From Qubevirus faecium, in sequence record FJ539135.1: DNA of 4,273 nt. One strand, written 5' to 3'. A model generated the notes under the pieces. It ran no database searches and was not told the origin of the DNA. It worked only from the letters and a program-made list of their open reading frames with translations. The position numbers were made by a program, and so were the translations under genes. Below, one piece after another: positions 41-4,169 of this stretch. Positions within the stretch are counted from its first letter, which is position 1. The number at the start of each line of letters is the position of its first letter.

Positions 41-46
41 GAGGAG
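41..46 (+). promoter_or_regulatory. Shine-Dalgarno sequence for the maturation gene
   Basis: GAGGAG at 41-46, 5 nt upstream of the ATG at 52. Confidence 0.7.
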
Positions 47-51
47 AATCT

Positions 52-1404
52 ATGCCAACCCTTCCGAGAGGTCTTCGCTTCGGATCGAATGGCGAGGTCT
101 TAAACGACTTCGAGGCGCTCTGGTTTCCAGAGCGCCATACCGTAGATCTAAGCAATGGGACCTGCAAGCTCACTGGTTATATCACTAACCTGCCGGACTA
201 CAGCAACACATTCCCGAATAAGGGGGTCACTGTTGCTCGTACGCCGTACAGAAGTACTGTGCCTGTTAACCATCTCGGTTACCGGCCAGTTACAACTGTT
301 GAGTACATTCCCGACGGCACTTACGTGCGCCTTGATGGGCACGTGAAGTTCGAAGGGGGCTTGGTTAATGGGTCAGTTGATCTCACGAATTTCGTGATCT
401 CATTAGCTGCTCAGGGTGGCTTCGATTACCAGTCGGTAATCGGACCTAGGTTCTCTGCGCACTTCTCCGCGTTCAGCACCAAATATGGTGTCTTGCTCGG
501 AGAAGGGAGAGAAACTCTTAAGTATCTTCTCCTGCTGCTTCGCAGAATGCGTGAAGGGTACCGCGCCGTAAGGCGTGGCGATTTCAAGCGTCTCAGGAAT
601 GTGATCTCTACGTTCGAGCCGATCTCCCCGAGAGGGAAGATGGCAAGATCAGAGTTCTCACAGACCTATCGCGACAAACTTACCGGTAACAAGGTTAAAG
701 TTAAACCAAGTGAAGGTAAGTGGAATAGCAGTAGTGCGAGTGACCTGTGGCTAGAGTTCCGTTATGGACTGATGCCTTTGTTTTATGACATTCAGTCCGT
801 CATGGAAGACTTCATGCGTGTCCATAAGAAGATCGCAAAGATACAGCGATTCTCTGCCGGACACGGTAAGCTGGAGACGGTTAGTTCGCGGTTTTACCCG
901 GACGTCCACTTCGCTCTTGAGGTCACCGCAGTGTTACAGCGGCGTCATCGTTGGGGTGTCGTATACCAGGATACTGGTTCTTATGCCACTTTCAATAATG
1001 GTCGTCTAGTCCCGGTGAAGGACTGGAAGACAGCGGCGTTTGCACTCCTTAATCCCGCTGAAGTTGCGTGGGAGATCACTCCCTACAGCTTCGTTGTGGA
1101 TTGGTTTGTAAATGTTGGTGATATGCTTGAGCAGATGGGCCAGCTTTATCGGCACGTCGATGTCGTTGACGGTTTTGACCGGAAGGACATAAGGCTTAAG
1201 TCCATATCCGTACGCGTCTTGACTAGTGACAGTGCACACGTAGCTAGTTTTACTCTACGTCAAGCACGTTTGTTGCATAGTTATTATTCGCGCGTGCATA
1301 CCGTTGCGTTTCCGCAAATTTCACCACAACTCGATACTGAGATACGTAGCGTTAAGCACGTGATCGATAGTATCGCATTATTAACCCAGCGCGTTAAGCG
1401 CTGA
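52..1404 (+). CDS. A2: Maturation (A2) protein, 450 aa; likely also the lysis protein as in Qbeta
   Basis: ORF 52..1404 with ATG start and TGA stop at 1402-1404. N-terminus MPTLPRGLRFG...LNDF..LWFP and internal blocks (LWLEFRYGLMPLFYDI, EVAWEITPYSFVVDWFVNVGD, IVDGFDRKDIRLKS, LLTQRVKR at the C-terminus) match my recollection of Qbeta A2. First gene after the 5' UTR, as in leviviruses. Confidence 0.9.
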   Translation: MPTLPRGLRFGSNGEVLNDFEALWFPERHTVDLSNGTCKLTGYITNLPDYSNTFPNKGVTVARTPYRSTVPVNHLGYRPVTTVEYIPDGTYVRLDGHVKFEGGLVNGSVDLTNFVISLAAQGGFDYQSVIGPRFSAHFSAFSTKYGVLLGEGRETLKYLLLLLRRMREGYRAVRRGDFKRLRNVISTFEPISPRGKMARSEFSQTYRDKLTGNKVKVKPSEGKWNSSSASDLWLEFRYGLMPLFYDIQSVMEDFMRVHKKIAKIQRFSAGHGKLETVSSRFYPDVHFALEVTAVLQRRHRWGVVYQDTGSYATFNNGRLVPVKDWKTAAFALLNPAEVAWEITPYSFVVDWFVNVGDMLEQMGQLYRHVDVVDGFDRKDIRLKSISVRVLTSDSAHVASFTLRQARLLHSYYSRVHTVAFPQISPQLDTEIRSVKHVIDSIALLTQRVKR

Positions 1405-1822: not shown

Positions 1823-2419
1823 GCGGCGTTACTGGTAGCCTCGTCCGGCGGTGGGGATAACCCCTCAAAGCCAGACGTTCCGGATCTTCCAGACGTCAAA
1901 CCGCCCGACGGAACGGGGCGCTATACGTGCCCCTTCGCTTGTTACCGCCTCGGTAGTATTTACGAGGTGGGTAAGGACGGTTCTCCTGACATTTACGAAA
2001 GGGGAGACGAAGTCTCGGTTACTTTCGATTACGCTCTCGAGGATTTCCTTGGGAACACGAATTGGCGTAACTGGGATCAGCGATTGTCATCATATGACTT
2101 AGCTAATCGTCGTCGTTGCCGTGGCAACGGGTACATTGACTTAAACGCTACCGCGATGCAGTCAGACGAATGTGTTCTGTCTGGCCGCTACCCGGTACGT
2201 AAGGTCAAGTTTCCCGGCGCATTTGGCTCCATCAAGTATCTCTTGAACATTCAAGGTGATGCCTGGTTGGACTTATCCGAGGTGACAGCATACCGCTCCT
2301 ACGGAATGGTTATTGGTTTCTGGACAGACTCTAAAAGTCCGCAGCTACCAACCGATTTCACGCAGTTTAACAGTGCTAACTGCCCTGTACAGACGGTGAT
2401 AATCATACCCTCACTTTAA
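1424..2419 (+). CDS. A1: A1 read-through protein (coat plus C-terminal extension), about 331 aa, made by suppression of the coat UGA
   Basis: I read the frame codon by codon from 1823 to 1966: no stop. The tracked ORF 1967..2419 (GTG start) is in the same frame as coat (both start positions are 2 mod 3), so the frame is open from the UGA at 1820-1822 to TAA at 2417-2419. Extension (..SKPD.P..P....PP.GTG.YTCPF...GNGYIDL..PGAFG..VIGFW..) resembles the Qbeta A1 extension as recalled. Confidence 0.85.
1820..1822 (+). promoter_or_regulatory. Leaky UGA stop codon of coat (programmed read-through site)
   Basis: UGA at 1820-1822, followed by G and 198 in-frame sense codons. In Qbeta the coat UGA is read through at a few percent, by tRNA-Trp, to give A1 (established knowledge). 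Confidence 0.8.
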
Positions 2420-2434: not shown

Positions 2435-2454
2435 TAGCATGTCAAAGACAGCTA
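2435..2454 (+). promoter_or_regulatory. Translational operator hairpin (coat-protein binding site) enclosing the replicase start codon
   Basis: UAGCAUGUCAAAGACAGCUA folds as an 8-bp stem (2435-2438 with 2451-2454; 2440-2443 with 2447-2450), a single bulged A at 2439 and a 3-nt AAA loop at 2444-2446. This is the same architecture as the Qbeta operator (8-bp stem, bulged A, 3-nt loop). The AUG at 2439-2441 lies in the 5' arm. Confidence 0.8.
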
Positions 2455-4169
2455 GTCGCAGAAGAGAAATTACTCAGCTATTGGGTAAGGTCGACATCAA
2501 CTTCGAAGACGACATCCATATGTCTATTGCCAATGACCTCTGTGAGGCCTACGGCATCCCGATGCTTCGTGACGCTGAGGAGTGCATTAACACCGCATTC
2601 CCAAGCCTTGATCAGAGCGCAGACACGTTTCGTGTCGAGTACTTACGCGCCGAGATCCTATCGAAGTTTGACGGGCATCCTCTTGGTATTAATACCGAAG
2701 AAGCAGCATGGGAGAAATTCCTGGCTGCCGAGGAGGGTTGTAGACGTACGAACGAACGACTGTCACAAGCTAAGTACCATGATAATTCTATTTTATCGTG
2801 GGGTGAGCGCGTAATTCATACCGCTCGCCGAAAAATACTTAAGCTAATTGGCGAGTCCGTGCCGTTCGGGGATGTGGCGTTGCGTTGCCGTTTTTCCGGC
2901 GGTGCAACGACCTCGGTGAACCGTTTACACGGCCATCCGTCGTGGAAGCATGCCTGTCCGCAGGATGTTACCAAACGCGCACTCAAGTATCTGCAAGCCT
3001 TTAAACGGGCATGCGGTGACGTTGTAGATTTACGCGTCAACGAGGTGCGCACTTCAAATAAAGCAGTCACTGTTCCGAAGAATAGTAAGACTGATCGCTG
3101 TATCGCTATCGAACCCGGGTGGAATATGTTTTTTCAACTCGGTGTAGGTGCGGTGCTACGCGATAGGTTGCGCTTATGGAAGATTGATCTTAATGACCAA
3201 TCGACCAATCAGCGTCTCGCGCGGGATGGGTCTCTGCTAAATCATTTAGCTACCATAGACTTATCCGCAGCCAGTGATTCGATAAGCTTAAAGCTAGTTG
3301 AATTGCTGCTCCCTCCTGAATGGTACGACCTTTTAACGGATCTCCGATCCGATCAAGGCGTTTTACCTGATGGACGAGTTGTGACCTATGAGAAAATATC
3401 CTCCATGGGAAATGGCTACACTTTCGAGCTTGAGTCGCTTATTTTCGCGGCGCTCGCAAGAAGTGTGTGCGAGTTACTAGAAATCGACCAATCTACTGTT
3501 AGCGTGTACGGGGATGATATAATCATCGACACTCGTGCCGCAGCTCCATTAATGGATGTCTTCGAATACGTTGGGTTTACGCCTAACAAGAAGAAAACGT
3601 TCTGCGATGGACCCTTCCGCGAATCGTGCGGTAAGCACTGGTTCCAAGGGGTAGATGTAACGCCCTTTTACATACGCCGACCAATTCGTTGCCTTGCTGA
3701 TATGATACTCGTTTTGAATAGTATCTACAGATGGGGCACTGTTGATGGCGTGTGGGATCCTAGAGCACTGACCGTATACGAAAAGTATCTCAAATTGCTG
3801 CCAAGAAATTGGCGACGCAACCGGATACCGGACGGCTACGGAGACGGAGCTCTCGTCGGATTGGCTACGACGAACCCGTTCGTTATAGTTAAGAATTATT
3901 CAAGACTATACCCGGTATTAGTTGAAGTCCAGAGGGACGTCAAGCGCAGCGAGGTAGGTAGTTATCTGTACTCCCTACTCCGCAATCGCGAGACACGTTA
4001 CAGTCCTTTCCTGCGTGACGCAGATAGGACTGGTTTTGATGAAGCGCCGCTAGCTACTAGCCTTCGTCGCAAGACAGGTCGGTACAAAGTAGCGTGGATT
4101 CAGGACAGTGCCTTCATCCGGCCCCCGTATTTCATTACGGGCATTCCCGAGGTGAAGCTTGCAAGCTAG
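2439..4169 (+). CDS. rep: RNA-dependent RNA polymerase (replicase beta subunit), 576 aa
   Basis: ORF 2439..4169, stop TAG at 4167-4169. N-terminus MSKTAS as in Qbeta replicase. Conserved blocks include CRFSGGATT, NKAVTVPKNSKTDRCIAIEPGWNMFFQLG, LATIDLSAASDSISL, VTYEKISSMGNGYTFELESLIFA, the catalytic YGDDII at 3507-3524 (GDD at 3510-3518), FRESCGKH, VDVTPFYIR and IPDGYGDGALVG. Confidence 0.95.
   Translation: MSKTASRRREITQLLGKVDINFEDDIHMSIANDLCEAYGIPMLRDAEECINTAFPSLDQSADTFRVEYLRAEILSKFDGHPLGINTEEAAWEKFLAAEEGCRRTNERLSQAKYHDNSILSWGERVIHTARRKILKLIGESVPFGDVALRCRFSGGATTSVNRLHGHPSWKHACPQDVTKRALKYLQAFKRACGDVVDLRVNEVRTSNKAVTVPKNSKTDRCIAIEPGWNMFFQLGVGAVLRDRLRLWKIDLNDQSTNQRLARDGSLLNHLATIDLSAASDSISLKLVELLLPPEWYDLLTDLRSDQGVLPDGRVVTYEKISSMGNGYTFELESLIFAALARSVCELLEIDQSTVSVYGDDIIIDTRAAAPLMDVFEYVGFTPNKKKTFCDGPFRESCGKHWFQGVDVTPFYIRRPIRCLADMILVLNSIYRWGTVDGVWDPRALTVYEKYLKLLPRNWRRNRIPDGYGDGALVGLATTNPFVIVKNYSRLYPVLVEVQRDVKRSEVGSYLYSLLRNRETRYSPFLRDADRTGFDEAPLATSLRRKTGRYKVAWIQDSAFIRPPYFITGIPEVKLAS

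Follow-up and report, generated by a model that had tools for sequence, protein, structure and literature searches.

A2 as the most likely lysis protein of a Qubevirus faecium genome without a conserved embedded lysis gene

Genome organization

The stretch of DNA analyzed here (4,273 nt, hereafter the window) is the complete genome of an isolate of Qubevirus faecium, a known species belonging to the group IV alloleviviruses (SP/FI group). This species is an F-pilus-specific RNA phage of E. coli. Over its full length (100% covered), the window shares 95.1% nucleotide identity with phage FI strain BR1 (FJ539134.1), which is the highest identity to any record, the genome differing from all of them. 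Identity amounts to ~91% with SP (X07489) and to 77-83% with the other FI/NL95-type genomes. The plus strand, of ~4.2 kb, carries in order the A2 gene, the coat gene, the A1 read-through extension and the replicase gene:

41-46, plus strand: Shine-Dalgarno-like GAGGAG located 5' of the A2 start, read from the sequence
52-1404, plus strand: A2 gene (maturation and, putatively, lysis), 450 aa, ATG start, Pfam PF03863
1424-1822, plus strand: coat gene, Pfam Levi_coat
1823-2419, plus strand: A1 read-through extension, in frame past the TGA, Pfam Read-through
2439-4169, plus strand: replicase gene, Pfam RNA_replicase_B

BR1 possesses the same four coding sequences at coordinates equal to those of the window, and its record (FJ539134.1) annotates 52-1404 as an assembly/maturation protein. 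A2 is the first gene, behind a leader of 51 nt. Its ribosome-binding site was scored as AGGAG at -10, and the GAGGAG at 41-46 is unchanged across six group IV genomes. A local consensus fold of nt 1-140, computed from six group IV genomes, contains conserved hairpins and places the A2 Shine-Dalgarno in a weak 3-bp stem only. At its 3' end, the window reads ...CACTCTCCTCCCA, in agreement with the signature TCCTCCCA described for this end of Qubevirus genomes (PMC6071253). Synonymous diversity is low at 3987-4133, which agrees with the known RNA structure of the 3' domain, and an Rfam scan of the whole window returned no family at gathering score.

The maturation protein A2 and its MurA-contact segment

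Both its sequence and its predicted fold identify the window A2 as an unambiguous homolog of Qbeta A2. It matches PF03863 (Phage_mat-A) with an E-value of 7.8e-86 (289 bits versus a cut-off of 25) and aligns with the Qbeta A2 chains 5VLZ/5VM7 (E 1.9e-119) and 5MNT (E ~1e-119), with 50% identity over 415 aligned residues. An AlphaFold2 model, which is of moderate confidence (mean pLDDT 64), has 5MNT as its best PDB match in Foldseek (E 5e-38, TM 0.69-0.73), and predicts strands at residues 8-118 and helices at residues 127-263, i.e., an N-terminal beta region and an alpha-helical region. At the same length of 450 residues, the protein is 96% identical to its BR1 counterpart and 94% identical to that of SP; looking up its exact sequence matched no record.

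The A2 proteins of the window and of Qbeta are alike in Pfam family and predicted beta/alpha arrangement, and also in gene position. Host and receptor type, as given in the records of the phages closest to the window, are the same as for Qbeta, whose genome likewise contains no separate lysis gene. They differ in length, the window protein having 450 instead of 420 residues because of a group IV-specific insertion within the alpha region. A further difference is that lysis and MurA inhibition are demonstrated properties of Qbeta A2 and putative ones of the window protein. Two parts of A2 have to be distinguished:

139-405, plus strand: A2 residues 30-118, which are homologous to residues 30-120 of Qbeta A2; N-terminal beta region, predicted all-beta
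616-711, plus strand: group IV-specific A2 insertion, ~residues 189-220, where the PDB alignment has a gap (between query residues 188 and 221)

The insertion comprises ~32 residues in the window, BR1 and SP, ~23 in other group IV phages and none in group III. It sits between the predicted helices 127-187 and 228-263, is partly of low confidence in the model, and falls outside the MurA-contact segment.

Inhibition of MurA is the established mechanism of lysis by Qbeta A2. If this mechanism is transposed to the window, A2, present as a single copy per virion and binding both the genomic RNA and the F pilus, would build up late in infection, and its exposed N-terminal beta region would bind and block MurA. 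Synthesis of peptidoglycan precursors would then stop and the growing cell would burst at the septum. As stated in PMC12856241, citing Cui et al. (2017), residues 30-120 of Qbeta A2 make most of the contacts with MurA. Conservation within the protein is lowest in this segment, where 27 of 88 positions (31%) are identical between the window and Qbeta, compared with 54-66% in the other A2 segments and 66% in the N-terminal 29 residues; across residues 1-180, which in Qbeta form a lytic fragment, identity is 46%. Such divergence bears out an earlier note on this DNA, according to which the residues involved may differ from those of Qbeta. With a contact segment that is only 31% identical, MurA is the putative target of the window A2, by extrapolation from Qbeta.

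Group IV A2 proteins could therefore be lysis proteins that engage MurA through substantially different contacts, or that act on another host target. The identity of the contact segment, well below the 50% found overall, would favor this possibility, as would its variability within each group (53% identity between the window and FI in group IV, and between Qbeta and M11 in group III, the highest variability of all segments), although such variability is expected anyway because the region is exposed on the virion. In addition, phages of both groups infect F+ E. coli and would thus face an identical MurA, and the fold appears to be kept together with the core of the beta region: the motif RTPxRxTVPxxxxGxRPVTTVxYxP, at residues 63-87, is conserved in all Qubevirus A2 of the alignment. 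A literature search found neither a lysis study of a group IV phage nor an experiment on MurA with an A2 of group IV (SP/FI type), which leaves this alternative some room; the cloned SP gene reportedly caused lysis. A substantially altered mode of target recognition is considered unlikely, and MurA inhibition in the manner of Qbeta A2 remains the preferred reading.

Alternative reading frames

Four open reading frames embedded in the phage genes required individual consideration. Two of them, 785-1009 and 2527-2814, had been named in the earlier note along with A2 itself (52-1404), and all three are present in the window at these positions.

155-346, plus strand: alternative-frame ORF in A2, 63 aa, ATG at 155; TMD-like only in the window isolate
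785-1009, plus strand: alternative-frame ORF in A2, 74 aa, ATG start; C-terminus hydrophobic; not considered a gene
1851-2102, plus strand: alternative-frame ORF in the A1 read-through region, 83 aa, GTG start; judged not to be a gene
2527-2814, plus strand: alternative-frame ORF, +1 in the replicase gene, 95 aa, TTG start, with the patch LTGILLVLIP; judged not to be a gene

The genome was screened with published criteria (Chamakura et al., 2020), i.e., at least 25 codons, a Shine-Dalgarno-like site and a TMD-like segment. Hydrophobicity was expressed as the best 19-residue Kyte-Doolittle mean (KD19; MS2 L scores 1.74 and phiX174 E 2.79), and ORF lengths were compared with chance by synonymous-codon shuffles. 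Among 31 alternative-frame start/stop combinations of at least 25 codons, none paired a Shine-Dalgarno-like site with a TMD-like segment. The longest alternative-frame stretch free of stops in all seven GenBank-level genomes spans 40 codons, comparison with nine other Qubevirus faecium genomes shows no candidate ORF to be conserved, and all the named candidates are broken or devoid of a start codon in most relatives. Similarly, no synonymous-site constraint was detected under 2527-2814 or 155-346. A conserved or well-formed embedded lysis ORF is thus absent from the window, as the earlier note had claimed in stating that there is no dedicated lysis gene. A +1 frame at 3958-4053, open with a start codon in six of six GenBank relatives, was rejected, the window having no start and 31 codons between stops at this position. 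ORFs of the minus strand are irrelevant, all phage genes being located on the plus strand.

The earlier note had regarded 2527-2814 as the only ORF of the kind found in MS2-type phages. It is indeed the only sizeable one at the A1/replicase junction, but 155-346 and 1851-2102 are embedded as well. Like MS2 L, the open +1 frame to which it belongs (2380-2814) spans the junction 5' of the replicase start. However, the junction is that of coat and replicase in MS2 and of A1 and replicase in the window, where the first ATG, GTG or TTG of the frame occurs only at 2527, inside the replicase gene. The KD19 maximum of this frame is 0.85 versus 1.74 for MS2 L, and its longest uncharged run is 12 residues, in agreement with the previous statement that 2527-2814 contains no convincing transmembrane helix. 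The ORF matches no Pfam family and is preceded by no Shine-Dalgarno-like site. With neither TMD, nor Shine-Dalgarno-like site, nor conservation, the junction of the window holds no MS2 L-like (type II) lysis gene.

Dismissing 2527-2814 by the missing transmembrane helix alone was nevertheless too quick, because the literature describes a cryptic +1-frame lysis gene in Qbeta (Genes Cells 9:877). As cited in PMC12856241, a lytic +1-frame product of 67 aa is encoded near the replicase start of Qbeta (Nishihara et al., 2004). Rebuilt in AB971354, it consists of replicase residues 1-24 followed by 43 codons read in the +1 frame, beginning with the UUG at 2425. It likewise lacks a strong TMD (KD19 0.66), so that the absence of a TMD is not disqualifying. 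In a codon alignment of the replicase genes, column 33 is the first of the window ORF and column 69 the last of the Qbeta +1 segment, so that the two share columns ~33-69 in the same frame. A product of this region, either 2527-2814 itself or a frameshift fusion that begins at the replicase start and reaches the stop at 2812-2814, might accordingly cause or contribute to lysis. At the replicase start, the +1 frame stays open for 124 codons in the gene and for 144 from stop to stop, which exceeds the runs of the shuffles (P = 0.009-0.018), with P ~0.05 for the length of the ORF.

Comparison with the relatives argues against such a product. The frame is interrupted in seven of eight (BR1, SP, HB-P22, NL95, FI and two Logan genomes) and open in HB-P24 only; the interruptions lie at differing positions and, in BR1, which is 95% identical, a stop falls within the hydrophobic patch itself. 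Start codons are not kept either, the TTG at 2527 being TCG in four of eight relatives and the ATG at 2533 being ACG in three of six GenBank relatives. Synonymous diversity under the ORF (0.31-0.52, against a mean of 0.33) is average or above, and the VLIPK patch arises incidentally from LGI(D/N)TE, a conserved motif of the replicase. The GAGGUUG shift/restart motif, found near replicase codon 24 in Qbeta, is absent from the window, and the stop positions are different. Nor is the Qbeta cryptic frame kept within group III, FrSangria having a stop one codon 5' of the UUG and MX1 several stops; it is interrupted in almost every relative in either group, and its role is putative even in Qbeta. 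Judged from the genomes compared, the long +1 open run is peculiar to the window isolate, as is, relative to other Qubevirus faecium strains, the ATG at 785 with its open frame. A contribution of the +1 frame to lysis is thus very unlikely and, while the missing helix was an insufficient reason, the comparative data justify setting 2527-2814 aside.

It is also highly improbable that one of the other embedded ORFs (233-346 or 155-346, 785-1009, 1851-2102) encodes a young, lineage-specific single-gene lysis protein. Sgl genes of ssRNA phages evolve rapidly, can arise de novo and may be lineage-specific (PMC7693330); because of this possible de novo origin, non-conservation lowers the chance of an active isolate-specific ORF and does not remove it. 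One candidate starts at an internal TTG at 233 of the 155-346 frame, preceded by TAAGGGGG with a 6-nt spacer, and would encode 37 residues (233-346), basic at the N-terminus and then uncharged for 30 residues (KD19 1.57). This TTG is shared by the window and BR1 only, the 155-346 frame is open only in the SP-like clade, and in each of the nine relatives the frame is broken or an Arg lies within the hydrophobic run; ORF 155-346 is therefore probably a product of chance. The hydrophobic end of 785-1009 reaches a KD19 of 1.86, with an Arg inside the hydrophobic stretch and no Shine-Dalgarno-like site. The ATG at 785 is ACG in eight of nine relatives, seven of which have a stop at codon 6, and the sole relative that retains the ATG also stops at codon 6, the frame being interrupted in eight of nine overall. 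Its length is ordinary among the shuffles (P = 0.30). ORF 1851-2102 (KD19 1.38) has no Shine-Dalgarno-like site and is broken in HB-P22, HB-P24, NL95 and the two Logan genomes. None of these ORFs combines the three features of the screen, and the likeness of alternative-frame peptides between strains is due to the conserved A2 blocks underneath.

Probable lysis by A2

The window thus contains no separate lysis gene, and A2 itself most likely lyses the cell by blocking MurA as in Qbeta (probability of roughly 0.78). That alloleviviruses lyse their host through the maturation protein is the view of several reviews (PMC6071253, PMC3561173), and SP, as Qbeta, has no dedicated lysis gene (PMC12856241). 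GenBank notes describe the protein as serving "particle maturation and bacterial lysis" in NL95, FI and M11 and as "maturation-lysis protein A2" in FrSangria. The lytic activity of the window A2 would follow from this knowledge of the genus, and the proposal of the earlier note that A2 is the probable lysis protein is supported computationally by homology to Qbeta A2, by the property of the genus and by these annotations. One observation in Qbeta goes against lysis by A2 only: the A2-V418K variant, defective in cytosolic lysis, still yields infectious particles (PMC12856241). The authors of that study explain virus-like particle release in the absence of A2 function by the cryptic +1-frame lysis product.

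A2 as the lysin is the textbook view for the genus and its standard annotation and, as such, is already known; the finding repeats accepted allolevivirus biology for a further isolate of an already known species and adds little to it. What deserves attention is the contrast between a MurA mechanism shown in Qbeta and the strongly diverged contact region of SP/FI-type phages, which raises the question of whether one enzyme is being recognized by two different surfaces. It is conceivable, if quite unlikely, that group IV A2 has rebuilt its lytic surface, either docking onto MurA in another manner or inhibiting another step of cell-wall synthesis. If so, SP/FI-type A2 would represent a second, independent "protein antibiotic" on the same scaffold, and whether one enzyme is met by two surfaces bears on how protein antibiotics evolve.

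Genome identity and the probable lytic role of A2

The sequence is a complete allolevivirus genome. By megablast against a phage collection, it shares 95.1% nucleotide identity along its full length with FJ539134.1 (Enterobacteria phage FI strain BR1, Qubevirus faecium), ~91% with phage SP and 77-83% with HB-P22, HB-P24, NL95 and FI, the match to Qbeta-type genomes being limited to a short stretch. The four annotated CDS of BR1 have coordinates identical to those of the long ORFs listed here. The exact A2 sequence has no record in a large protein collection, and the isolate is therefore new, although its species is known.

Genes (each an ORF and a BR1 CDS, with Pfam E-value) and upstream motif
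41-46, + strand: GAGGAG, upstream of the A2 start
52-1404, + strand: maturation protein A2 (Phage_mat-A, 7.8e-86)
1424-1822, + strand: capsid (Levi_coat, 1.2e-56)
1424-2419, + strand: read-through protein, A1 (Read-through, 4.7e-49)
2439-4169, + strand: replicase (RNA_replicase_B, 9.5e-256)

It had been proposed from the sequence that A2 is the probable lysis protein of this phage, an assignment now supported by homology to Qbeta A2, the literature on the genus and GenBank annotation. Reviews describe the lack of any lysis gene, with the maturation protein serving lysis, as a property of alloleviviruses (PMC6071253; PMC3561173), and both Qbeta and SP are devoid of a dedicated lysis protein (PMC12856241). 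In GenBank, the A protein of NL95, FI and M11 is annotated as 'involved in particle maturation and bacterial lysis' and that of FrSangria as 'maturation-lysis protein A2'. A2 acting as the lysin is, as such, the accepted view for the genus. Direct genetic, biochemical and structural evidence concerns Qbeta A2, and no MurA test with an A2 from group IV (SP/FI-type) was found in the searched literature. Nishihara (2002) reportedly obtained lysis with the cloned SP gene. Our confidence that A2 is the single-gene lysis protein here, with MurA blockage as its most likely mode of action, is 0.78; that A2 is the lysin is the firmer of these two steps.

Fold and divergence of A2

A phmmer search against PDB sequences matched Qbeta A2 (5VLZ/5VM7/7LHD, 5MNT; E ~1e-119) over residues 1-188 and again over 221-450. 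When twelve Qubevirus A2 proteins are aligned, the stretch separating these two blocks corresponds to a group IV insertion (616-711, residues ~189-220), ~32 residues long in the window and in BR1 and SP, ~23 in other group IV strains and 0 in group III (Qbeta-type). This accounts for the length of 450 residues, against 420 in Qbeta A2. Twelve cluster representatives were used to build an AlphaFold2 model of moderate confidence (mean pLDDT 64, pTM 0.53). It has strands over residues 8-118 and long helices over 127-187 and 228-263, between which the insertion falls; in Foldseek, the model best matches the Qbeta A2 chains of 5MNT (E 5e-38, TM 0.69-0.73). The insertion is thus predicted to belong to the alpha region, outside the beta region that binds MurA. 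In Qbeta, the alpha region is inside the capsid, on the RNA (PMC12856241). The insertion is rich in Lys and Arg and, at a guess, might contact RNA inside the capsid. A conserved A2 helix also carries an RGD tripeptide (AVRRGDFKR; 574-582, residues 175-177), of which G176 and D177 are invariant in the 12 aligned proteins. RGD motifs in allolevivirus A1/A2 have been proposed as attachment motifs (PMC6071253); the present tripeptide belongs to the alpha region, and that region is internal in Qbeta.

According to Cui et al. (2017, as cited in PMC12856241), most MurA contacts of Qbeta A2 are made by residues 30-120 and its shortest lytic fragment is 1-180.

Identity of the window A2 to Qbeta A2, by Qbeta A2 residues
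1-29: 66%
30-120: 31% (27/88)
121-190: 56%
191-420: 54%
Whole length: 50%

The earlier caution that the residues involved may differ in the 450-aa protein is in line with the 31% identity of segment 30-120, which is the most variable part within each group too. A2 may alternatively lyse the cell through a different docking mode or target, which we regard as unlikely. A core, RTPxRxTVPxxxxGxRPVTTVxYxP (residues 63-87), is kept in all lineages, including three undescribed ones from metagenomes. Undescribed Qubevirus-like A2 proteins from public assemblies comprise P0008 (421 aa; 51% identity by BLASTP, 56% in an alignment) and P0011/P0012 (428-430 aa, 40%).

Screen for a hidden lysis gene

All ORFs described in the earlier note (the 450-aa A2 following GAGGAG, 2527-2814 and 785-1009) were found, together with two absent from it, 155-346 and 1851-2102 (83 aa).

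Embedded ORFs
2527-2814, + strand: TTG start, 95 codons, +1 frame of the replicase gene, contains LTGILLVLIP
785-1009, + strand: ATG start, 74 codons, within A2
155-346, + strand: 63 aa, within A2
233-346, + strand: TTG start, 37 codons, +1 frame of A2, inside ORF 155-346

The screen followed the three criteria that Chamakura et al., 2020 (PMC7693330), applied to lysis genes of ssRNA phages: a length of 25 codons or more, a predicted membrane domain and a Shine-Dalgarno site. The plus strand has 31 alternative-frame start/stop combinations, and none of them has both a Shine-Dalgarno-like site and a membrane-domain-like segment. Relatives were nine other Qubevirus faecium genomes, six from GenBank and three Logan contigs (76-95% nucleotide identity). 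The Logan assemblies with Q. faecium genomes are SRR6713852, SRR21278121 and SRR16971258. In an alternative frame, the longest run free of stops in all seven GenBank-level genomes is 40 codons, and no ORF combines a shared stop, a start codon in every genome and a hydrophobic segment. This screen and the poor conservation of the candidates support the view that there is no dedicated lysis gene.

The +1 open frame at the replicase start spans the A1/replicase junction (2380-2814; 144 codons, 124 within the replicase gene), its earliest possible start codon being 2527. The 124-codon run is longer than expected from shuffling either synonymous codons (P = 0.009) or codon order (P = 0.018), with P ~0.05 for ORF length, and it matters because the cryptic lysis gene of Qbeta occupies the same frame and region. 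As relayed in PMC12856241, Nishihara et al. described a 67-aa Qbeta product formed after the GAG of GAGGUUG, which that paper invokes to account for the release of particles despite defective A2 lysis. Position 2421 of Qbeta AB971354 carries the motif, and the reconstructed product consists of replicase residues 1-24 followed by 43 codons of the +1 frame; when the +1 frame was threaded on the replicase codon alignment of twelve Qubevirus genomes, ORF 2527-2814 overlapped this region. The Qbeta product is weakly hydrophobic too, with a best 19-residue Kyte-Doolittle mean (KD19) of 0.66. For frame 2380-2814, KD19 is 0.85 and the longest uncharged run 12 residues (references: MS2 L, 1.74; phiX174 E, 2.79), and the earlier judgment that ORF 2527-2814 holds no convincing transmembrane helix was correct.

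In contrast to Qbeta, the window has no GAGGUUG motif. The ORF is interrupted in seven of the eight relatives covering this region, by a stop at codon 52 in BR1 (within the 'hydrophobic patch'), 65 in SP, 29 in HB-P22, NL95 and SRR21278121, and 10 in FI and SRR16971258; four of the eight have TCG instead of the TTG at 2527. It is open in HB-P24 only, whose +1 run in the same region is ~120 codons. Among the twelve genomes, +1 stop positions differ in nearly every strain, and even the Qbeta group does not keep the frame (in FrSangria the codon before the one preceding the frame's UUG restart site is not needed to break it, a stop lying one codon upstream of that UUG, and MX1 has several stops). 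The conservation of VLIPK in the +1 frame follows from that of the replicase motif LGI(D/N)TE. For these reasons, the long ORF is in our view a chance feature of this isolate, in a replicase region that seems generally poor in +1 stops; a functional role for it is very improbable, and lysis by a +1 product from the replicase start correspondingly has very little chance of being correct.

That another embedded ORF causes lysis is likewise most improbable, since start codon or open frame is missing in most relatives. The ATG of ORF 785-1009 is replaced by ACG in 8/9 relatives, and codon 6 is a stop in 7/9; ORF 1851-2102 is broken in 5/9. The genome's closest approach to a lysis-like ORF, and the nearest miss of the screen, is 233-346, preceded by TAAGGGGG at 219-226 and encoding a basic N-terminus (MLVRRTEV) then 30 uncharged residues (KD19 1.57). 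Its TTG is present in the window and BR1 only, and all nine relatives have a broken frame or an Arg amid the hydrophobic run.

Synonymous constraint

Synonymous diversity, calculated at codons with an invariant amino acid in seven Q. faecium genomes (mean 0.33), is 0.31-0.52 under 2527-2814 and 0.36-0.41 under 155-346; this lack of added constraint argues against an overlapping gene at either place. Troughs of 0.07-0.13 occur at 2439-2513, 2907-2981, 3987-4133 and 1276-1350, corresponding respectively to the replicase start/operator, M site, 3' domain and S site, all of them known RNA elements. The S and M sites are annotated in the SP record. These troughs probably reflect RNA-structure constraint and not hidden genes. 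In the region of lowest diversity, at 3958-4053, all six GenBank relatives have a moderately hydrophobic +1 ORF (27-73 aa, ATG/TTG start, shared stop; counterparts at genome loci L001, 3970-4053; L003, 3925-4056; L005, 3802-4023; L006, 3807-4028), and the window has 31 codons between stops and no start codon.
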